From NCBI GenBank assembly GCA_963808625.1, contig CAWEHK010000018.1:96001-160000 (forward strand): DNA of 64,000 nucleotides. Direction: 5' to 3'. The stretch is from an uncultured delta proteobacterium (GTDB taxonomy: Bacteria; Desulfobacterota; Syntrophobacteria; Syntrophobacterales; Syntrophobacteraceae). Position numbers and translations under genes: made by a program. The notes beneath the pieces are model-generated. The model had not been told where the DNA came from. It did no database searches and was given only the letters and a program-made list of their open reading frames with translations. Positions 46,346 to 64,000 of the stretch are shown here, one piece after another. Numbering within the stretch: position 1 is the first letter of the stretch; the number at the start of each line of letters is the position of its first letter.

Positions 46346-47771
46346 TTAATTTTTGAATTGCATTGACTTGATTTCGAGGAATTCCTCCAGGCCGAATTTA
46401 CCCAGTTCCCGCCCGTTGCCGGATTGCTTGTATCCGCCGAAGGGGGCGTATAGGTTGAACGGGCCGCCGTTGATGTCGACCTGACCGGTGCGCAGGCGGC
46501 GGGCCACCCGCTCGGCCCTTGCGGTATCGCCCGACCATACTCCTCCCGCCAAACCGTAAATGGTATCGTTGGCGATGCGCACGGCATCGTCTTCATCGCT
46601 GAAGGTGATTATGGCCAGCACCGGCCCGAAGATCTCTTCTCTCGCTATGGTCATCCCGGGGTCCACACGACCGAAAACGGTCGGCTTCACATAATACCCC
46701 TTGTGCAGCCCGTCCGGCGCTTCCGGGCCACCCAGTGAGCAGTTCCGCCCCTTCCTCGATTCCCTTGCGGATGTAGCTTCTTACGCGATCCCGCTGAGCC
46801 GCCGAAACGAGGGGGCCGATTCTCGTCTTGTCGTCAAGAGGATCGCCCGGGACGAAGGTCTTGCAGATTTCCAGCACCAGGCCTTTGATCTCTTCGTAGC
46901 GGTTCTCCGGCACCAGCATCCGGGTGTGGGCGGTGCAGGTCTGGCCCGAGTTAAGAAAACAGGCGGCCAGGGTGCTCCTGACGGCGGAGGGCAGATCCGC
47001 GTCATCCAGAATGATCGAGGCCGATTTGCCCCCCAGTTCCAAAGCGACGCGCTTGACGGTCTCCGCAGCCAGCACCGACAGGCGTCTTCCCGTAGCCGTG
47101 GAGCCGGTGAAGGAGATCATGTCCACCTCCGGGTGGAGGGCGAGGGCTTCTCCCACAACCCCGCCGGGACCGCTGACGAGGTTGAAGACACCGTGCGGAA
47201 GGCCGGCTTCATCCGCTATTTCAGCCAGGATGAAGGCCGTAAGCGGCGCTTCCGAACTGGGCTTCAGGACCACGGTGCAGCCGGCGGCAAGGGCGGGCGC
47301 AACTTTCGCCACGGTCTGGTGAAGGGGGTAGTTCCAGGGAGTGATGCAGGCCGCCACGCCGATCGGTTCCCGAACGATCAGCGAGTTCCCGATCCGTTCC
47401 TCGAATTGGTAAGCGGCGACCAGCTTCGCGTAGCTCTCCATCACCGCCGCCGGAAGACCGGCCTGGATACGCTGCGAAAGCTTAAAAGGCATGCCGACTT
47501 CTCCGGCCACGGTGCGTGCGATCTCGTCAGTCCGCGCGGCAAGTCCCTGGTGAAGCTTGCGTAGATATTCCGAACGCGTTTCCACGGGTGTCGAACCCCA
47601 TTCGGTAAAGGCAGCGCGAGCGGCGGCAACGGCCCTGTCAACGTCTTCCCGGGTTCCGGCGGGAACCCGCCCCATGATCCCTTCGGTTGAGGCGTTGATG
47701 ACCTCGATAAAAGACGAACTGCCGGCCGGCGTCCATTGGCCCCCGATGTAAAGCTTGTCGTAGATTACCAT
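46346..47771 (-). CDS. Aldehyde dehydrogenase (frameshift near 46735)
   Basis: 'ITPWNYP', 'FTGS', 'LELGGKS', 'NSGQTC', 'EEIFGPV', 'PFGGYKQSG'. Confidence 0.9.
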
Positions 47772-48035: not shown

Positions 48036-48970
48036 TCAATCCTCATCTTCTTCGTCCGGGTCATAGCGCTTTTTCCTGATCATGAGGCGAACGAAGGCCA
48101 CTATCGTCAGGATCGCAGCCAGCAGGAACAGGAGTTCATAAAGGTTCTGGCTGGCCCAAAGCAGCCACATGTTCTTGCTGCGCAACTCTTCCAGCCATTC
48201 ATCCTCAAGGTTTTGGAGAGACTTTGAGGTCGCTCCGGAGATGGCTTGATCAATCGACAATCCTTCACGCAAATGCTGCAAGACCCTGAGAAGGCTCTCT
48301 TTGCCGTAACGGGCCACCAGATATTCAACAAACAGACGACTTTCCACATACGCCTGGATGAGTGAATCCTTGTCTTTCGGGAAACTCACCGCCAGCTGCC
48401 GCAAGGGGATGGGATGACGCGCCGGATTGATCGCGCCGGCGGCAACTCCCTTGCCAACCAGGATTTCCCCCAGACTTCCGCTTACCCACTGGCAAATTCC
48501 CTCATCCAGCCATCGGGGAAGGAACATCCTCCTTGATGTGGTCATGAAGGAGAAGATGGCAGAGCTCATGTTCGAAGGTCTCGCGCAAAAGGTAGGGTTC
48601 GGAGACGGCGGGAGACAGATGAATGACAATGGAATGTTGCGAAGGGACCGCGAAAGCTGAGATCAGAGGATTCCCGCTCATTTTCTCGAAAGTCTCTCGA
48701 TCTGCGACCAACAGCACCCGTGGGTGGCGAGCGGAACTTCCAGCCCAGAGTGTCCTCAACATGAGCCCTGATTTCGGGGTAGATCTGCTGGAGGTGCCTG
48801 GCCTGAACCCCTAGCGGCTCATCACCGGCAATGACGAGTTCTTCACTTCTCTCCTCTGCTCCCGGCAAGTCAATAGAAGTGAGAGCGCAGGCGATACAGG
48901 CAAGCAAAAAGAGCACCATTTTAGGTGCCTGTTTATTTGCCTCGGGGTGCTTTCCGCGGATCGTCCCCAT
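48036..48970 (-). CDS. Peptidase MA-like (gluzincin) membrane-anchored protein (frameshifts near 48720 and 48530)
   Basis: HELCH followed by 'PRWLDEG'; N-terminal hydrophobic segment and C-terminal TM; three ORF pieces. Confidence 0.65.
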
Positions 48971-49004
48971 CAAAATCCTGCGAATACGGCTTATGAAAGG
49001 CTTC

Positions 49005-49448
49005 TCATGGGCTGGAAGTAGACCACTCCCGGGGCATTTTGAGGATTTGTTCGTAATGGCCGGTTTCAATTCCCGACATATAATGGACAATATCAAAGCT
49101 GCACAGGATGCCGATGGGGCGCCTCGGTCCTGCGTGCGGGTCGACGATAATCAGGTGCTCATACTTGGTCCGCTTCATGAGCTCGATCGCCTTTTCAATC
49201 GGCCATTGGGGATCCACCTCAATCCGGTAGGGCCGCATGACATCCTCGGCGCGTGTTTGCTCCAGATCCTCTCCGTAAAACCGAATGACCGCCAGCCTCG
49301 TAACAATGCCCCAAACCTCACCGCTTTCATGCACCACTACCACCGGGCGGAATTGATTGGCTTTCATCATCCGCACCACATCCTTCACGCTGTCGTCCGG
49401 ATAGCAGAAGATAACATCACGATCCATAAGGTCACAAACGCGCATCAT
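49005..49448 (-). CDS. CBS-domain protein
   Basis: Two CBS repeats ('RVCDLM', 'GIVT', 'RAEDVM', 'IGIL'). Confidence 0.85.
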   Translation of the reverse strand: MMRVCDLMDRDVIFCYPDDSVKDVVRMMKANQFRPVVVVHESGEVWGIVTRLAVIRFYGEDLEQTRAEDVMRPYRIEVDPQWPIEKAIELMKRTKYEHLIIVDPHAGPRRPIGILCSFDIVHYMSGIETGHYEQILKMPREWSTSSP

Positions 49449-55036: not shown

Positions 55037-57412
55037 TCAGAACAGGTCGGACTTGAAAAAGGATTCCGAAGCCGAGGCGGGGGTATAGGGTCTCCCCCCC
55101 ATTTCACCCTGCTGACCGGCTTCCGAAGGTGGCCCTCCTGAAAACGCTGCATAAACCCCGTTGGGATCATCGGCGCGTGTGACCATGCCGGAGTAGGAAT
55201 TCACTCTGGCAAACACCACCCCGGGGGGAATGGGAAAGCTTTCGAGGGGTTCATTTTTCAGCCATTCTTTCATGAAGTACAACCAGATCGGGCAGGCTGC
55301 CCGGCCTCCGGTTTCGCCCTTGCCCAGAGATAGCGTATGGTCGTCATAACCGACCCAGACCCCGGCGAGGGTCGAAGGAGTGTAGCCGACGAACCAGGCA
55401 TCTTTCATTTCGTTCGTGGTTCCTGTCTTTCCGGCTGCGGGTCGGCCGAGTTCCTTGGCTTTTTGACCGGTGCCTTCCTCGACCACGCCCTGGAGTAAAT
55501 TCGTCATGATGTAAGCCGTTTGCGGCGAAATCACACTCTCCCGCACCACCTGGTGCTCTTCCACCAAGCGACCTTTGCGATCAAGTATTTTTTCAATCAA
55601 ATAGGGCTGAACCCGTTCGCCCTGGTTGATGAAAGGCGTATAAGCGGTGATCAACTCCTCCAGGGTGACCCCTGAAGAACCCAGAGCGAGCGCCAGAGTA
55701 GGCGTTAAGGGGGACGTGACGCCCAGTTGTCTGGCGTAGTTTATGGCATAGTTGACGCCGATCTGCCCCAGGAGTTTCACAGTCACCACATTTCGGGAGT
55801 GGATCAAAGCCTTCCTGAAAAGAATCGGCCCCCAAAACTGCTGGTCGTAGTTGGCTGGTTTCCAGGGGCCTTTCAGGCTTCGATCATCCAACACGATCGG
55901 TGAATCGATGAGGATGGAAGCCTCCGTGAACCCTTTATCCAGAGCAGCAGCGTAAATAATCGGCTTGAAGGCGGAACCCGGCTGCCTGACCGCTTGCGTG
56001 GCACGATTGAACTGGCTCTTTTCGAAATCCCTGCCGCCAACCATACAAAGCACTCTGCCGGTTTCAGGGACCATCGCCATCAGCGCCCCTTCCATGCCCG
56101 GGTCCTGCTCCAAAACCGCCAGCCAGCTCTTATCATCCAGGAGCTTGTCGAGATGCACTCTGACGACATCTCCAACTCGAAACATCTTCGTCGCACGCTT
56201 GTCGGAAACCTGCGTCCATTGCCAACCCGACGGCGGCAGCTTGGCCGAAACGTCACCCAACCGAAGCAGGCATGTCTGGGTCTTGGGATCGTAGGCAGTC
56301 ACCAGGGCGGCAACGATTTTGCCCTGAGTCAGATCACCGTTTCTTTCCGTCAAGACTTTCAAAGTTGTCGGCCAGTCTTCTTTCGCTACGTTAAGATTGA
56401 CACCTCGATAACGACTGTGGCGTTTGTCCAGTTCCCTCAACCCGGCATCCAGGGCCTTTTGGGCTATTTCCTGAGCCCTGACATCCATGGTGGTATAAAT
56501 GGAGATGCCCTGTTTGTAGAGACCATCACGCCCATAGCGGGCTTCCACCTGGCGGCGGACTTCTTCGGTAAACGAGTTGAGTGCCTTCAGGGTCCAATGC
56601 TTCGGTTTGGCGAAATGCAGGGGCTGGGCAAGGGCTTTTCGCGCTTCCTCGGAAGTGAGGAATCCAACTTCCGCCATTCTCTTCAAAACATATTCCTGGC
56701 GATCTTTGGCCACAGAAAAGTTCTGAAGCGGCGAAAAGCGGCTCGGCGCCTTGGGCAGACCTGCCAGCATGGCACCCTCGGCAAGGCTCAGATCCCCAAC
56801 ATGCTTGTCGAAATAGGTCCGAGCGGCGGCTTCCACACCATAGGCGCCCGCCCCGAAATAGATCTGGTTCAGATAAAGGTAGAGAATCTCGTCCTTGCTC
56901 AACGAATGGTCGATCCGATAGGCGAGCGCGGCTTCCTTCAGCTTGCGCATCCAGGTCTTCTCGGGCGAGAGGAGCAGTGATTTAACCACCTGCTGCGTGA
57001 TGGTGCTCCCGCCCTGGACTATTTCCCCGGCTTCAAGATTCTTCAACGAGGCCCGGATGATTCCAAGCAGATCCACCCCTCCGTGCTCATAAAAGCGGGC
57101 GTCTTCCGAAGCGAGAAAAGCCTTCACAACGTAAGGAGGAACTTCCTGCAGCGGCACCAGGAAGCGACGCTCCGTATAGAATTCGCCGATCAATGACCCA
57201 TTGGCGGCGTAGACGCTGGAAACCAAAGGCGGATGGTAGTTCCTGAGTGACTGGGTGCTCGGGAGGGAGCGGTCCAGTTCGATGTAAAAAACTATAAGCG
57301 CAAGCCCGGCGGCAACCACCAAGCCCGTAACGAGAGTCAAAAAGCCAAATGCAAGCCAGCGTATGGGGCCCTTTTTCGCAGGCATCCTTTTGCGCGGTGA
57401 TGCACGTCTCAT
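55037..57412 (-). CDS. mrcA: Penicillin-binding protein 1A
   Basis: EDARF, GGSTITQQ, YLNQIYFG; SAFK, SRN, KTGT. Confidence 0.92.
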   Translation of the reverse strand: MRRASPRKRMPAKKGPIRWLAFGFLTLVTGLVVAAGLALIVFYIELDRSLPSTQSLRNYHPPLVSSVYAANGSLIGEFYTERRFLVPLQEVPPYVVKAFLASEDARFYEHGGVDLLGIIRASLKNLEAGEIVQGGSTITQQVVKSLLLSPEKTWMRKLKEAALAYRIDHSLSKDEILYLYLNQIYFGAGAYGVEAAARTYFDKHVGDLSLAEGAMLAGLPKAPSRFSPLQNFSVAKDRQEYVLKRMAEVGFLTSEEARKALAQPLHFAKPKHWTLKALNSFTEEVRRQVEARYGRDGLYKQGISIYTTMDVRAQEIAQKALDAGLRELDKRHSRYRGVNLNVAKEDWPTTLKVLTERNGDLTQGKIVAALVTAYDPKTQTCLLRLGDVSAKLPPSGWQWTQVSDKRATKMFRVGDVVRVHLDKLLDDKSWLAVLEQDPGMEGALMAMVPETGRVLCMVGGRDFEKSQFNRATQAVRQPGSAFKPIIYAAALDKGFTEASILIDSPIVLDDRSLKGPWKPANYDQQFWGPILFRKALIHSRNVVTVKLLGQIGVNYAINYARQLGVTSPLTPTLALALGSSGVTLEELITAYTPFINQGERVQPYLIEKILDRKGRLVEEHQVVRESVISPQTAYIMTNLLQGVVEEGTGQKAKELGRPAAGKTGTTNEMKDAWFVGYTPSTLAGVWVGYDDHTLSLGKGETGGRAACPIWLYFMKEWLKNEPLESFPIPPGVVFARVNSYSGMVTRADDPNGVYAAFSGGPPSEAGQQGEMGGRPYTPASASESFFKSDLF

Positions 57413-57783
57413 GAATGGCACCTCATGAGGAACGATACTATCAGAACTGCGGCAGCAGAGGTCGGAAATCCGAAATAACCGCTCCGACATGCGGAACCCC
57501 GAATCAGAGGAAAGTCCGGAGCAACCTCTGCTAGTCCTCGAATGCGGCTTCAATGCATATTCTCCCCGAATGAACAACGAATTATCACGCCTTTCCAGTC
57601 AAGATATCGACCAAAGACAAGAACCCGCCATGGCTTTGCGTCGGCCGGCCGTTCCCGTTAAAGGAACATGCTTAGAACCAACTCAACCCTATATATCTAC
57701 CATATTCTATATTCGAGGAAAAGCACCTGAATCTAATGAAACCTCGAGTACTCAGTGAGGAAACAGAGGGCAACGCCATTTTC

Positions 57784-57812
57784 TTGACATTCGAGGACGC
57801 GGTCTCTAGCAT
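57784..57812 (+). promoter_or_regulatory. Sigma70 promoter for the precursor-maturase operon
   Basis: TTGACA (57784-57789), 17 nt, TAGCAT (57807-57812); RBS GGAG at 57866-57869 before ATG 57877. Confidence 0.75.
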
Positions 57813-57876
57813 GATTTGCAGGCGGGGAGGATAGAATACGATTTGAGAAAAACCAGCTGACCGATGGAGCAAGAGC

Positions 57877-58191
57877 ATGGACACTAAGGAACTCAAGAAA
57901 GTTCTCGCCGGGTTGTGCTTTGCAACCCTGCTGTCCGGGGCCGGCCTTACCGCCGCAGGAGCAGCGAGCGGGTGAGGTGCAGGCCAGTCCGGCGCCGGCG
58001 GCGCCCAACCTCCCAAAAAAGAAGCTGGAAAAAGTGGGTGAGGAGGGACCCAACCCAGCGCAGTTAGCGTTGGAGAAAAAAGCAAAGAAGCGACTAAGGG
58101 TGACGGAAATGCCACCAGGTCCGGAACGGGTGGTGCAGAAGAGCAGAAGAAAGTCCCCGGCAAGAGCGGCTGAGGCGGGAGCAAGCAATAG
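57877..58191 (+). CDS. sbtA: SbtA-family (selenobiotic) RiPP precursor with three putative selenocysteines (U33, U55, U99)
   Basis: Hand translation MDTKELKKVLAGLCFATLLSGAGLTAAGAASG*GAGQSGAGGAQPPKKEAGKSG*GGTQPSAVSVGEKSKEATKGDGNATRSGTGGAEEQKKVPGKSG*GGSKQ-TAG. TGA at 57973, 58039 and 58171, all S-G-*-G; the leader matches the family; rSAM gene adjacent. Confidence 0.85.
57991..58005 (+). promoter_or_regulatory. Candidate SECIS for UGA 1
   Basis: GGCGCC-GGC-GGCGCC; loop begins 21 nt after the UGA. Confidence 0.5.
58055..58073 (+). promoter_or_regulatory. Candidate SECIS for UGA 2
   Basis: CCAGCGC-AGTTA-GCGTTGG; loop begins 20 nt after the UGA. Confidence 0.6.
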
Positions 58192-58212
58192 TGCAGGTTG
58201 CACTGGCCCCGC
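58175..58212 (+). promoter_or_regulatory. Candidate SECIS for UGA 3
   Basis: AGTGCA-GGT-TGCACT upper stem, loop 22 nt after the UGA; lower stem GCGGG/CCCGC; resembles the fdhF-type GCAGGU apex. Confidence 0.7.
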
Positions 58213-58341
58213 TTGTCAGGACATACCCTTCATTGCAGAAGAGAGCGAAGGTTACCGGTTTAACCGGGTGTTTCAGCACGATGTTTGTATTTTGGCCGTG
58301 TTCTATCCTCCCCCCGAATCAAACGACGAAAGCCTCGACCC

Positions 58342-59942
58342 GTGTATCAAGAGACTACGGATAGGATTGAAGCGATATATCCCGGATGCCGGCAGATTAT
58401 TCCATCCGACGCATGGGATCGTCTTGCAGGCGCCTGTGCCGCGGGCCGTGGACCGGAAGAACTGCCTCAGGTTTTGTCTCGGCAAGCGGATATGCTTTCC
58501 CTCCCCGGTTATTTGCCGGAGCTTGCGCTTCTGGAGTGGGCCCTCTTCCGAGTGAAAACCATTGAGCCCGATTACTCCCTGCCGGGCAATTCAATTGATA
58601 TCAACCCTTCTCTCCAGTTGCTCCGCTTCTCCTGGAAAAACCTGACGTTTCTGCTGACTGCCGCTGAGAATGACCCTTCTCCCCTCACGGAACCAGGTGA
58701 AGAATACGTGCTCGTCTGGCGGCATCCGAGAACCGTGAGGCCCTGGTCTGCCCTGCCACTCACGAAGATCTCCTGGTGCTCAAAATGGCGGCTGAGGAGA
58801 TCGATCCCAAACAGGTGGCCGCTGCCGGCAGGGTTACCCTTCATCAACTCGATTCAGCCATCGATCGAGCAGTGGGGAAGGGGTTGTTGATTGCCCCACC
58901 TTCGGGCATTCGGCGTGATCCCTCTTGTTTCCTTATGGATCATGAGATCGAGGAGGATTTCCTGTCGTCTCCCGTTTTCACCCTCCAATGGCATATCACC
59001 GGGGCTTGCGACCTTCACTGCAGGCACTGCTATGATCGGAGCGGCACGCATTCCCTCGAACCGGAACAAGCGCTGAAGGTCCTTGATGGACTCTCCGAAT
59101 TCTGCCGGAGCCGAAAGGTCAAGGGGCAAGTCTCCTTCACCGGCGGCAACCCCATGCTCTATCCCGCCTTCCTGGAGGTCTACCGGGCTGCCTCCGAGCG
59201 CGGCTTCGGCCTCGCCATCCTCGGCAATCCGGCGCCCCGGGAGCTGATCGAAGAACTGGTCGCCGTCGAGCCGCCCCTTTATTATCAGGTGAGCCTCGAA
59301 GGGCTGCGGGAACACAATGATTATATTCGCGGGCGCGGACATTTCGATCGCGTGCTTGAATTTCTCGAGGTGTTGCGCCATCTCGATATTTACTCAATGG
59401 TTATGCTCACGCTTACCAGGGACAACCTCTCTCAAGTGCTGCCTCTCGCTGAAATGCTTCGCGGCCACACTGACTTATTCACTTTTAACCGCCTCTCCCT
59501 GGTGGGCCGGGGCGCCGCCCTCAAACTCCCCTCCAAGAACGACTACAGGGTCTTTCTGGAGGCTTATTCGGAGGCTGCAGAGCGCAACTCCGTCTGCGCT
59601 TTGAAAGACAATCTGATCAACATTATCCATCACCAAAAGGGCTTGCCCGCCTTTGGCGGATGTACCGGCTATGGATGCGGAGCCGCCTTCAACTTCATTT
59701 CTCTTCTGGCGGATGGGAGCGTCCATGCCTGCCGCAAATTTCCGTCACCCATCGGAAACATCCTTCACACCAGTCTCGGGGAACTCTACGACTCCGAACC
59801 CGCCCGGCGCTACCGTTCCGGCTCCCGTGCCTGCCGGTCCTGTGCCATAAAGCCCGTATGCGGGGGCTGCCTGGCGATCGCTCACAGCTTCGGACTTGAC
59901 GTGTTTGAAGACCGCGACCCCTATTGCTTTATCGCGGAGTGA
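58342..59942 (+). CDS. sbtM: SbtM-family radical SAM/SPASM peptide maturase (frameshift near 58735; start uncertain)
   Basis: 'FTLQWHITGACDLHCRHCY' (CX3CX2C), TGGNP, QVSLEG; SPASM 'GGCTGYGCGAAFNF', 'HACRKF', 'CRSCAIKPVCGGCLA', 'DPYC'. One added G joins the N-terminal ORF (RTGEALVCPATHEDLLVLKM). Confidence 0.88.
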
Positions 59943-59997: not shown

Positions 59998-61155
59998 TCA
60001 CGCAAAAAGGTCCTGTTTCTTCATGAGTTCTCGGAAGATGATCAGTTTCTGCACGTCCTGGGTGCCCTCGCCCAGCGATGCTGCCCAGGCATCCATGGGG
60101 TACTTATGGATAGGATGTTCGAAGATGACCGAGGCAGCACCAAAAAGGTCCGCAGCCCACACCCCGATCTCTCTTGCCGCCTCCACCGCAAGGTATTTCG
60201 CCACGGATGATTCCAGACGAAAGTCCAACCCCTGATCTTTAAGCCAGCAAGCCTTCCACAAGGTCAGCCCGGCGGCTTCGATCCTGCTGAAGAAGTGCGC
60301 AGCTTCGAACGATTTGGCCTGGAAATGGACTATGCTCTCATCGAACACCTTCCGCTTTCGAGCGTGTTCAAGGCCTTGTTCAAAAGCCCCCCTGGCCGTC
60401 CCCAACGTCAGTGCACTGATCGCGATCCGGCTGTGCGTGAAAATGTTCAGGACCTGCTGCAAGCCTTTGCCCCGTTCACCAACCAGGTTCTCATCGGGAA
60501 CATAGGCATCCTTGAAACGGAGCCGGGTAAGATCGGAAGGAATCCACACCCTTTTGTTAAGCTTCGTTCGGGAAATCCCCTGAGCCGACAGGTCCACCAG
60601 GAACATGGATAATCGCTGGTTTCTCGGGGCTTCCGGATCGGAAACGGCAGTAATGAGAGCCAAATCGCTGATGGTCCCATTAGTAACGTATGCTTTGGTT
60701 CCGTTCAGTAACCATCCGCCCTCAATGCGATCAGCCCTGGTCGCAATGCCGGCCACATCACTTCCGGCGGTGGGTTCCGTGTTGCCAAGGCACATCAGAG
60801 TTTCCCCGAGAATGGCCGCAGGCAGAATGCGGGCGGCTTGCTCGGCATTCCCGCACAGGTAAAGTCCTTTAACCCCGAGGGAGATCTGCACGGCAACGGC
60901 AACGGCAACCCCCGGCGACAGCCTTGCCAGACATTCCATCAGGACGGCCTGTTTCAAGGCGGATTCCTCCTGTATGCCCTCATCGCCGGCAACGAAACCC
61001 AGCCAGCCAGTCCCTCCCAGTTCCTGGAAGAAATCACCCGGAATGACCCCGTCTTCATACCATTGCGATAGCCGCGGCCGAAGACGCTTATCGAGAAAGG
61101 CCTGAAAACGATTCAGCTCTTCACTTATCTCTTGCGGCAAGGAAAAGTTCATCAC
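59998..61155 (-). CDS. Acyl-CoA dehydrogenase
   Basis: 'TEPTAGSD', 'LNGTKAYVTNG', 'GERGKG', 'GEGTQDVQ'. Confidence 0.9.
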   Translation of the reverse strand: MMNFSLPQEISEELNRFQAFLDKRLRPRLSQWYEDGVIPGDFFQELGGTGWLGFVAGDEGIQEESALKQAVLMECLARLSPGVAVAVAVQISLGVKGLYLCGNAEQAARILPAAILGETLMCLGNTEPTAGSDVAGIATRADRIEGGWLLNGTKAYVTNGTISDLALITAVSDPEAPRNQRLSMFLVDLSAQGISRTKLNKRVWIPSDLTRLRFKDAYVPDENLVGERGKGLQQVLNIFTHSRIAISALTLGTARGAFEQGLEHARKRKVFDESIVHFQAKSFEAAHFFSRIEAAGLTLWKACWLKDQGLDFRLESSVAKYLAVEAAREIGVWAADLFGAASVIFEHPIHKYPMDAWAASLGEGTQDVQKLIIFRELMKKQDLFA

Positions 61156-61337: not shown

Positions 61338-62603
61338 TTACTTCACCAGCAAGAGGCTCAGCGGAGGGAAGAAGGTGATGATCGCGAGAGCCACCAGGAG
61401 GATGGCAATGAAGGGAAGGGATGCGTAATAAAGATAGATAACCGATTTTTCGAACCTCAGGCTCGCAATGAGAAGGTCCATGCCGATCGGAGGAAGCGAA
61501 TAGCCGATTTGGAGGTTGGTGAGAAAGATGATCCCCAGGTGCAGCAGGTCCACTCCATAGCTCTTGGCAATGGGTACGATTAGAGGCACCACAATAACCA
61601 GGGCGGAGAAAATGTTGAGGACGCAGCCGACCCCGAGCAGGAACAGGTTCAAGATGAAGAGAAAAGCGACCTTGCTTTCGACGTGGGCGCGCATGAAGCT
61701 CAAAATCTTGTTCGGCACCTGCTGGTCGATCAGGAAGCTGTTGAAGGCAAGAGATGCGCCCAGAATCACCACAATGGCGCCCACCATCATTACCGTTTTC
61801 ATGATGGTGGACGGCAAATCCTTTATCTTGATTTCCCGGTGGATGGCCATCTCCACAAAGAGCACATAAATGGCCGTAATCGCTGCGGCTTCACTCAGTG
61901 CCAGGTAACCGCTGAAGATCCCGCCCAGGACTACCACGGGAAGAAGGATTTCCCAGAGGGCTTCGCGGAGGGCCGCGAGGATTTCGCGGAAACTGAAATT
62001 GTCATGGGCGCCGGTGGTTCCGCACCGAATGCCCTGGACCATGCCGTAGAGGGAAAGCAGAACCAGCATGAGCACACCGGGCAAAACCCCCGCCAGGAAA
62101 AGATCGGCGGTATTGATGTCGGCGACCATGGCATAGATGATCAGAGGAAGGCTGGGAGGGAAGAGCAGTCCGAGGCTTCCGCAGGTGGTCAGCAGCCCGA
62201 GGGAGAACTTTTCCGGGTACTTGTCGGCGATCAGTGCAGGCAGCATCAACCCGCCGAGGGCGACAATGGTAATTCCGGAAGCGCCGGTAAGCGCCGTAAA
62301 AAAAGAACAGGTGATGAGCGAGACGATGGCCAATCCTCCGGGCGCCCGCCCCATGATCGCCGCCGATAGCCTGACCAGCCTCCTGCTGGCCTGGCTTTCC
62401 CCGAGCACGTATCCGGCGAAGGCAAAAAGCAGGAGGGCAATCAGAATGGGACTGGCCGCCAGGCGGTACATTTCGATGATGACTGCGGAGAGGTCCACGC
62501 CCAGGGAATGCAGGCACAACAGGGCGCCGGCGGAGATCACCAGGAACAGCGGGGCCCCGGAAAAAGCCACCAGGATCAGCAAGACAGTCAGCAGCAGCGT
62601 CAT
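61338..62603 (-). CDS. dctM: TRAP transporter large permease
   Basis: 'TGASG', 'GSLGLLFPPS', 'LFLAGVLPG', 'PPIGMDL'. Confidence 0.9.
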   Translation of the reverse strand: MTLLLTVLLILVAFSGAPLFLVISAGALLCLHSLGVDLSAVIIEMYRLAASPILIALLLFAFAGYVLGESQASRRLVRLSAAIMGRAPGGLAIVSLITCSFFTALTGASGITIVALGGLMLPALIADKYPEKFSLGLLTTCGSLGLLFPPSLPLIIYAMVADINTADLFLAGVLPGVLMLVLLSLYGMVQGIRCGTTGAHDNFSFREILAALREALWEILLPVVVLGGIFSGYLALSEAAAITAIYVLFVEMAIHREIKIKDLPSTIMKTVMMVGAIVVILGASLAFNSFLIDQQVPNKILSFMRAHVESKVAFLFILNLFLLGVGCVLNIFSALVIVVPLIVPIAKSYGVDLLHLGIIFLTNLQIGYSLPPIGMDLLIASLRFEKSVIYLYYASLPFIAILLVALAIITFFPPLSLLLVK

Positions 62604-63109
62604 TCGCTCAGGTCACCATGGCCCATACTTAGCTTTCCAATGAACTGATAACCAAACCGTAACGTCATGAGCGCGAAACTGAGCGGAAAAACCGTCTCCA
62701 GCCACCAGTTGGGAATGCCAACGAAGGCCATGGTGCCCGAGCTCATTTCCATTTGGACAAAGATGAAGGAGGCATAAAGGAGCGTGGCGGAAACCAGCGT
62801 TGCGAAAAGGTTGCTGATAATACCGAGGGCTCGGGCGCTTGCAGCGGGCAGCAACTTCGGGAGGAGATCAATTTGGATATGCTTATTTTCAGCAGTGGCT
62901 CGCGCCGCCCCGAGCAAACTGACCCAGAGTACGATTTGCCGCAGCAAGGTATCACCCCAGATGACGCCGGTTGAAAAGAAATTGCGGAGGATGATTTGGA
63001 CCATCGAGAACAGGACTAGAAATATCACCAGCGAAGCGATCAACCCGTTTTCGAGCAGTCCGAACCAGCGGCTCAACTGCAATATGCTGTTTCGCAGGGA
63101 AGACTTCAT
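62600..63109 (-). CDS. dctQ: TRAP transporter small permease
   Basis: 4 TM; 'QIILRN', 'KHIQID'. Confidence 0.88.
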   Translation of the reverse strand: MKSSLRNSILQLSRWFGLLENGLIASLVIFLVLFSMVQIILRNFFSTGVIWGDTLLRQIVLWVSLLGAARATAENKHIQIDLLPKLLPAASARALGIISNLFATLVSATLLYASFIFVQMEMSSGTMAFVGIPNWWLETVFPLSFALMTLRFGYQFIGKLSMGHGDLSE

Positions 63110-64000
63110 TGTTTTTTGGGAGATCGCGCCCGGTATTCGGCAAGTTCGGCCTGGATCTTCTTATAGGTGGCCATAGGAAACTCCTTCGGGCCAATGTCAG
63201 CCATAGCCTTATCGGTGAGTTCCTTAAAATCCTTGATCTGGTTCGGGTCCGGAGTCACCTTCTTCACCCCCCGCTTAAAAATGATCTCGAGGGCATCGGT
63301 GTTATCTTTCCTGGTTTGCTCAACGACCCGCTGCAAATATCTGGCAGAGACTTTTCTCAGGGTCTCCTGAAGAGGAGCCGGGATTTTGGCAAGAAATTTT
63401 TTGTCCATCACCAGGACCCCGCCGACATAGGAAACCGGAGCGTCGGTAAGGTACTTGATCTGGGTGTACCACTGGGTGATCAGCGCATAGTAGGGTGAAT
63501 TGTACACCACTTCGAGGAGGTTGGTCTGGAGGGCCATGAGCACATCCGGAGCGTTAATGGCGACGGTGGAAACGCCGACCTTTTCCATGATCGCCTGCAG
63601 CATGGGGGCGTTGGACTTGCCCCAGACTTTCTTGCCCTTGATGTCGTTCAGGCCGGCAATAGGAGTTGTCGACATAAAATAGAGAAAGCCAAGCTCCGGC
63701 CAGCCCAGGATTTCAAAACCCTTCTCGGCAAACCCGCGCTTCAAGTCGGGTTCGAGCTTAGCCATGACATAGTCGACTTCCTGGTAATTGTCGAAAAGGA
63801 AAGGAACAAGGAGCGCACGCAGATCATGATTGACATCGGTGAGTCCGGACGCGGTGAAGGCTGCGCCGTGCACCATGCCAATGCGAAGCTTCCTCAGCAC
63901 ATCCTCTTCATCGCCCAGGACAAAGCCGGCGAAGAGTTTGAAGCCCACTTTGCCTTCGGTTTCCTTGAGCAGTTCCGCATTCATCTCATTGAAAATCTGC
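63106..64000 (-). CDS. dctP: TRAP substrate-binding protein (5' end outside the window)
   Basis: 'LGDEEDVLRKL', 'PFLFDN', 'DIKGKK', 'ALQT'; frame open to the window edge. Confidence 0.85.
   Translation of the reverse strand, partial: QIFNEMNAELLKETEGKVGFKLFAGFVLGDEEDVLRKLRIGMVHGAAFTASGLTDVNHDLRALLVPFLFDNYQEVDYVMAKLEPDLKRGFAEKGFEILGWPELGFLYFMSTTPIAGLNDIKGKKVWGKSNAPMLQAIMEKVGVSTVAINAPDVLMALQTNLLEVVYNSPYYALITQWYTQIKYLTDAPVSYVGGVLVMDKKFLAKIPAPLQETLRKVSARYLQRVVEQTRKDNTDALEIIFKRGVKKVTPDPNQIKDFKELTDKAMADIGPKEFPMATYKKIQAELAEYRARSPKKQ

Follow-up and report, generated by a model that had tools for sequence, protein, structure and literature searches.

An SbtA family gene with three in-frame TGA codons in an uncultured delta proteobacterium: predicted tandem core and SECIS cassettes and a putative decayed fourth

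In bacteria, SECIS elements of the E. coli fdhF type are short hairpins whose apical loop contains a G; they overlap the coding sequence and follow the UGA codon at a short, constant distance on its 3' side. The closest described systems for the gene reported here are the SbtA precursors (TIGR04081, thio(seleno)oxazole RiPP precursor) and their radical SAM/SPASM maturases SbtM (TIGR04082). In PMC9204691 and PMC11002830, SbtM is described as acting in vitro on Gly-Cys or Gly-Sec with a change of -4 Da to form a thio(seleno)oxazole, selenooxazole formation being demonstrated for another family member than the one studied here (PMC9204691). PMC9204691 also gives the SbtA precursor as likely to contain "at least two" Sec residues and leaves the biological role of the product open, and a table in PMC13188914 enters TIGR04081 as "Selenobacteriocin" with the core SGUG and 2 Sec. 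The bufferins form a second point of comparison: according to bioRxiv 10.1101/2024.03.18.585515 and PMC12452194, they carry signal peptides, are made with DUF2063-RRE partners, and bind copper through thiooxazoles, and NGO1945 is the partner type of the signal-peptide-bearing bufferins (PMC12452194). A limited literature search matched no paper on multi-UGA SECIS RiPP repeats or on DUF2063 with radical SAM, and both may already be covered in print.

The sbtA gene lies at positions 57877-58191 of the forward strand of the window, i.e. the whole stretch of 64,000 nucleotides analysed, and has 104 codons once TGA is read as U (Sec). Its in-frame TGAs (57973..57975, 58039..58041, and 58171..58173) are codons 33, 55, and 99, and the terminator is TAG at 58189-58191. 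The ORF scores 44.3 bits against TIGR04081 (cut-off 30.5), with the match at leader residues 1-26, the three cores ASGUG, KSGUG, and KSGUG are of the SG-(U/C)-G type with an in-frame UGA, and the next gene downstream is sbtM. sbtA is a member of the already described SbtA family, and its three UGAs are predicted to be read as selenocysteine; gene callers of the standard kind end at codon 33, and the gene is overlooked. Two orthologues, L040 from the same genus (80/104 aa in common) and L172 from a metagenome, are colinear with sbtA and keep all three TGAs. The leader (57877..57966) has the shape of an export signal peptide, with a basic start, a hydrophobic core (best 11-residue hydropathy 2.47), and small residues at the end. 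Upstream are a GGAG resembling a ribosome binding site, read from the sequence 7 nt 5' of the ATG (57866..57869), and a sigma-70-like promoter match (57784..57812; 10/12 consensus matches, 17-nt spacer), which has the consensus match as its support, two such sites being found against 0.5 expected in shuffles. The flanks are housekeeping genes, all on the minus strand: a divergent PBP1A gene (55037-57577), a convergent acyl-CoA dehydrogenase gene (59998-61155), and a TRAP transporter (61338-63999). In leader family, SGUG core, UGA with a downstream SECIS-like hairpin, and an adjacent radical SAM/SPASM gene, the locus resembles known SbtA/SbtM systems; unlike the SbtA with 2 Sec entered in the table of PMC13188914, it has three Sec codons and what appears to be a decayed fourth site, and its sbtM is split in the assembly.

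The sbtM gene (58285..59942, forward strand; start uncertain, TTG at 58285 or GTG at 58342) encodes a radical SAM/SPASM maturase whose N-terminus is a DUF2063-like and RRE module. It matches TIGR04082 in two pieces, of which the 3' one scores 644.5 bits and the 5' one 68.5 bits (cut-off 350), and is split in the assembly by a one-base frameshift near 58733. If the gene is truly broken, the locus would be a decaying relic of past selection whose peptide is unmodified or not made; we consider this unlikely, on the following balance. Both sbtM copies of the genome are split, as is the L040 copy (at other places than the window copy), an sbtA match was found in only one of the seven other genomes of the genus, and no tRNA-Sec was found in the 84.6%-complete assembly by Rfam, Aragorn, motif scans, or blastn with the tRNA-Sec of five relatives. 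On the other hand, a contig of run X1 that differs by 19 substitutions in 1,719 nt carries an extra base in a short C run at the break, which leaves its sbtM frame open, the L172 frame is intact, sbtA itself is free of lesions, and the aldehyde dehydrogenase gene of the window is likewise split. Because the X1 contig and L172 frames are open and another window gene is also split, the break in sbtM probably arose as a slip in the assembly; a check of the frameshift rate of the assembly, in which two of eight genes were split, sbtM itself among them, was too small a sample to inform on this point. The aldehyde dehydrogenase gene (46346-47771, minus strand) is probably split by an assembly indel, and a peptidase MA-like gene (48036-49096, minus strand) appears to be spread over overlapping frames, probably also as a result of assembly indels. 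The second sbtM copy, at the end of another contig (G000 C44, 95036-95937, minus strand), is approximately 69-75% identical with two frameshifts, and its 5' end and any precursor would lie past the contig end.

The selA, selB, and selD genes of the host all score over their cut-offs, and selD has an in-frame TGA of its own. In the Rfam search for tRNA-Sec, the best match among the 150 of 734 candidates scored was tRNA-Trp; tRNA-Sec is present in all five relatives checked. Three genomes of the genus (L045, L047, and G000 C43:77177-78121) also contain a different radical SAM gene that has a single in-frame TGA and may encode a selenoprotein.

Behind each of the three TGAs, at +14 to +32, lies a predicted SECIS hairpin with a stem of 6-7 bp and a G-containing loop. 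Hairpin 1 (57991..58005; 6-bp stem, 3-nt G loop) encodes GAGGA and has a folding energy no better than shuffles (z 0.13); one of its C-G pairs is U-A in L040. Hairpin 2 (58055..58073; 7-bp stem, 5-nt loop; z -2.0) encodes PSAVSV, and L040 has U-A in place of one of its C-G pairs, a compensatory change; the swaps in both hairpins also alter a residue. Hairpin 3 (58189..58205; 7-bp stem, 3-nt G loop; z -1.85) begins at the stop codon, in non-coding DNA; its sequence does not vary among the window, L172, and L040, although the flank differs. In being short, with a loop G at a set distance 3' of the UGA and an overlap with coding sequence, these hairpins resemble SECIS elements of the fdhF type, with the difference that there is one hairpin per tandem repeat and that the last is located in the 3' untranslated region.

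To place the hairpins in the family, a leader profile from 34 seeds was run on 251 loci and gave 177 hits, of which 160 precursors were left after removal of incomplete and out-of-range ORFs and 129 after reduction below 90% identity; a hairpin rule was used to trim 11 ORFs, because a TGA stop that comes after U-S-G looks like a core and inflates the Sec count. A family hairpin (at least 5 bp, G loop, +18 to +28 from the TGA; derived consensus RGYGC-loop-GCRCY) is present behind 293/329 motif-defined TGA sites, the hairpin-blind figure (293/317 is biased upward by the trimming), among them 84/86 terminal sites, versus 5/66 cysteine cores, 4/16 TGA stops, and 78/600 other codons. At 195 sites picked by the peptide motif alone, five stem positions pair in 99.4% (slid controls 17-51%), and the stem swaps are extensive and two-sided (e.g. 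A-T/G-C 94/81 and T-A/C-G 97/91). The peptide motif [GSD][AT][GV][GS] follows 197/218 internal Sec sites (197/235 before trimming) and none of 56 cysteine cores. All of these counts overstate independence because the sequences are related, and the curation was our own. In 12/13 pairs of Sec codons only 3-8 residues apart (L011, L014, L015, L016, L018, L020, L022, L138, L157, L158, L167, and L205), the first codon lacks a separate hairpin at the usual distance. A single SECIS may act on both UGAs; if SECIS spacing in bacteria is strict, that would be out of the ordinary.

These figures bear on a 20-residue repeat that an earlier note, made from the sequence without database searches, had flagged in sbtA: copy 1 (residues 38-57, 57988..58047) consists of the hairpin 1 footprint, a linker, and core 2, and copy 2 (residues 82-101, 58120..58179) of a relic hairpin footprint, a linker, and core 3. 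The note had read the repeat as a recognition-plus-core cassette, of which the SGAGG part would be the recognition half; on this reading GAGG, SAVS, and SAGS would be peptide recognition elements for SbtM, with the hairpins secondary. In its favour, copy 2 retains SGTGGA in spite of a broken hairpin and no preceding Sec (pS 0.83, pN 0.08 for this zone), and unit 3, as delimited below, is well conserved against L040 (dN/dS 0.06); since the copy 2 residues are kept without the hairpin, some protein-level constraint remains. Several observations weigh more heavily on the other side. The motif is carried by none of the 56 cysteine cores (drawn from at most 17 loci), and a cysteine paralogue at L207 is without it where Sec relatives retain it; synonymous positions covary with pairing preserved; and at 84/86 terminal Sec sites the hairpin is present as 3' UTR RNA, outside any coding sequence. 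For the first and last of these reasons, the SGAGG part is best explained as mainly the coding footprint of the predicted SECIS hairpin that belongs to the Sec codon before it, contrary to the earlier note, and SbtM recognition as its principal function appears improbable, slightly more so than the decay of the whole locus.

Selenium would be dispensed with altogether if TGA stood for Trp or Gly genome-wide (code 4 or 25) or were read through non-specifically, with which the failure to find tRNA-Sec in the assembly and the GGA codon at the dead site would agree; this is very improbable, as TGA terminates neighbouring genes (e.g. sbtM, 59940-59942), the tRNA-Trp anticodon is CCA, homologues have Cys in these cores, position-fixed covarying hairpins are restricted to these TGAs, and selA, selB, and selD are present.

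The earlier note had counted 14 of 20 residues common to the two copies, 10 of the 14 through different synonymous codons, and our recount agrees exactly. The 22 nucleotide differences fall 4/3/15 at codon positions 1/2/3 (pS 0.92, pN 0.19; Fisher p 2e-7), and when placed at random they reach 14 identities in 2/100,000 trials, a figure which is optimistic because the segment compared was picked after the repeat was seen. Synonymous sites between the copies are saturated and the duplication is therefore old, as the note had supposed. The signal is kept, and the selection argument is independent of the SGAGG zone, when the hairpin-coding codons are omitted (residues 44-57 vs 88-101: pS 0.98, pN 0.22, p 1e-4), and the core residues 51-57 vs 95-101 show five synonymous and no non-synonymous changes. 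Between orthologues, dN/dS over residues 34-104 is 0.17 for window-L040 (p 7e-8), 0.25 for window-L172 (p 0.002), and 0.13 for L172-L040 (p 1e-9), with no indels; the exception is unit 2 (residues 56-77), where dN/dS is 0.42-0.57 and not significant (p 0.17-0.32). Purifying selection beyond the first TGA, which the note had deduced from the two copies, is thus seen both between copies and between orthologues, and neither of the outcomes that the note had set against it, an equal synonymous fit in another frame or strand and frame-breaking indels in homologues, was observed. Other frames give 3/19, 3/19, 4/20, and 3/19 identities between the copies, and the chance that the pattern belongs to one of them or to the antisense ORF of 170 codons (57672-58184) is close to nil, since that ORF, although open in the window and L172 and with 10/19 identities between copies, shares third codon positions with sbtA, gives a weaker orthologue signal (pS 0.42, pN 0.19; sense frame pS 0.56, pN 0.16), and is interrupted by two stops in L040, which already contradict it there.

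The residues U33, U55, G77, and U99 are spaced exactly 22 codons apart, and the nucleotide autocorrelation of sbtA has maxima at lags of 66 and 132, which makes the flagged copies units 1 and 3 in a tandem arrangement. The "recognition-plus-core cassette" of the earlier note stands as a duplicated cassette and fails in the unit it named, the true unit being this 22-codon tandem. In the unit between them lies KGDG (residues 74-77, 58096..58107), with codon 77 exactly 22 codons from both Sec55 and Sec99; the note had speculated that this may be a fourth site in decay. In the four-Sec relatives L036 and L037, the third Sec core is what KGDG aligns with. Codon 77 (GGA) is one base from TGA, and the 12 nt of KGDG are 3-5 changes from the live cores; in unit 2, 9/22 positions agree with unit 1 or 3 (shuffle p 0.003). 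The hairpin behind KGDG (58123..58137, encoding GTGGA) is eroded, with stem positions pairable by hand count at 3/5 in the window, 2/5 in L172, and 4/5 in L040, where it is not the minimum-energy fold, compared with 99.4% at live sites. To judge from this alignment and the eroded hairpin, KGDG is a decayed fourth Sec site, as the note had guessed, and since it is identical in all three orthologues the loss is old. Similar orphan hairpins were observed in L078, L105, L140, L155, and L156, some of which may be due to sequencing errors.

The number of Sec codons per precursor (n=129) is distributed as follows: none in 10, one in 4, two in 54, three in 42, four in 17, and five and six in one each (L082 and L138, respectively). 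With two to four Sec in 113/129, three Sec codons are ordinary in the SbtA family and sbtA is an ordinary member; 91/198 Sec-to-Sec intervals in the family are of 19-23 residues. TIGR04081 matches were found in 30/401 genomes sampled in the phylum and in 17/96 in the order, with the genome studied here (G000) included. Two tandem genes with sbtA leaders are found at L205, L207, L012, L021, L022, L085, L202, and L217; the pairs at L205 and L207 combine one Sec-type gene with one Cys-type gene without the hairpin motif, and some tandem partners are without any core.

We propose, with high confidence in the explanation as a whole, that sbtA is a selenopeptide precursor made of tandem 22-codon core and SECIS cassettes, one of four having been lost. 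Each cassette would consist of a (K)SG-UGA-G core, then, approximately 15 nt on, a G-loop hairpin of 5-7 bp as SECIS, and then a charged linker. The ribosome, SelB, and Sec-tRNA would insert Sec at codons 33, 55, and 99, which we strongly infer, and SbtM would convert each Gly/Ser-Sec to a selenooxazole. The ancestor would have had four cassettes, the third of which lost its UGA (to GGA) and core while its hairpin eroded and its linker was kept. The precursor would probably be exported by way of the signal-like leader and the product would be a periplasmic soft-metal binder; this role, the most likely one for the product, is the weakest step of the scheme and we would put it at somewhat below an even chance.

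Export is suggested by the hydrophobic core found in 129/129 family leaders. A lipobox-like Cys at residues 27-33 was observed in 28/129 precursors (e.g. L006, L077, and L083) and suggests lipid-anchored forms. No transporter or protease gene is conserved near sbtA across 80 loci, and neighbour clustering of the same 80 loci showed no accessory gene common to the family; the largest of the real clusters comprise 8-11 loci. The N-terminal 193 residues of the L172 SbtM were modelled (pLDDT 93), and the model matches NGO1945 (3DEE) with a Foldseek E of 1.4e-6 and TM of 0.64, and with a Z of 13.9 and rmsd of 3.2 over 162 residues in VIA, followed by TglHI entries (Z 12.0) and then RRE domains. At the sequence level, a profile search of the SbtM N-terminus against PDB gave no match (best E 0.91), and Pfam found DUF2063 in 1/55 and NGO1945_C in 1/55 members, below cut-off. 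The SbtM N-terminus is thus predicted, by its model, to fold like the bufferin partner NGO1945, which hints at an exported, metal-binding product.

The likeness to the bufferins and the EGKCG-repeat oxazolins (MNIO/DUF692 with a DUF2063 partner) extends to the signal-peptide-like leader with its lipoprotein minority, as seen in hydropathy and lipobox pattern, to the repeated small Cys/Sec cores with a thiooxazole-type product, and, by predicted fold, to the DUF2063-like and RRE partner module, which is here fused to SbtM and whose sequence match stays below the Pfam cut-off. Unlike in bufferins, the maturase is a radical SAM/SPASM enzyme in place of MNIO (DUF692), the genes flanking sbtA being those of PBP1A, SbtM, and acyl-CoA dehydrogenase, and selenium takes the place of sulfur. 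We tentatively suggest, by analogy and with rather less than even confidence, that SbtA products may be what anaerobes have as a selenium-based equivalent of bufferins, namely multivalent metal chelators that act through selenooxazoles and are either exported or anchored to lipid. They would be made by a radical SAM enzyme convergent on the same heterocycle with the DUF2063-like and RRE module fused to it, and the number of metal sites would be tuned by gain and loss of core-plus-SECIS cassettes.

For the family, approximately 300 natural, covarying, tandem SECIS hairpins would offer a model for the recoding of several UGAs in one short message, and the putative dead fourth cassette gives a view of a recoding signal eroding once its UGA has been lost. 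The predicted fold shared by SbtM and the bufferin partner leads to a testable idea, that the product of this pathway may chelate metal in the periplasm.
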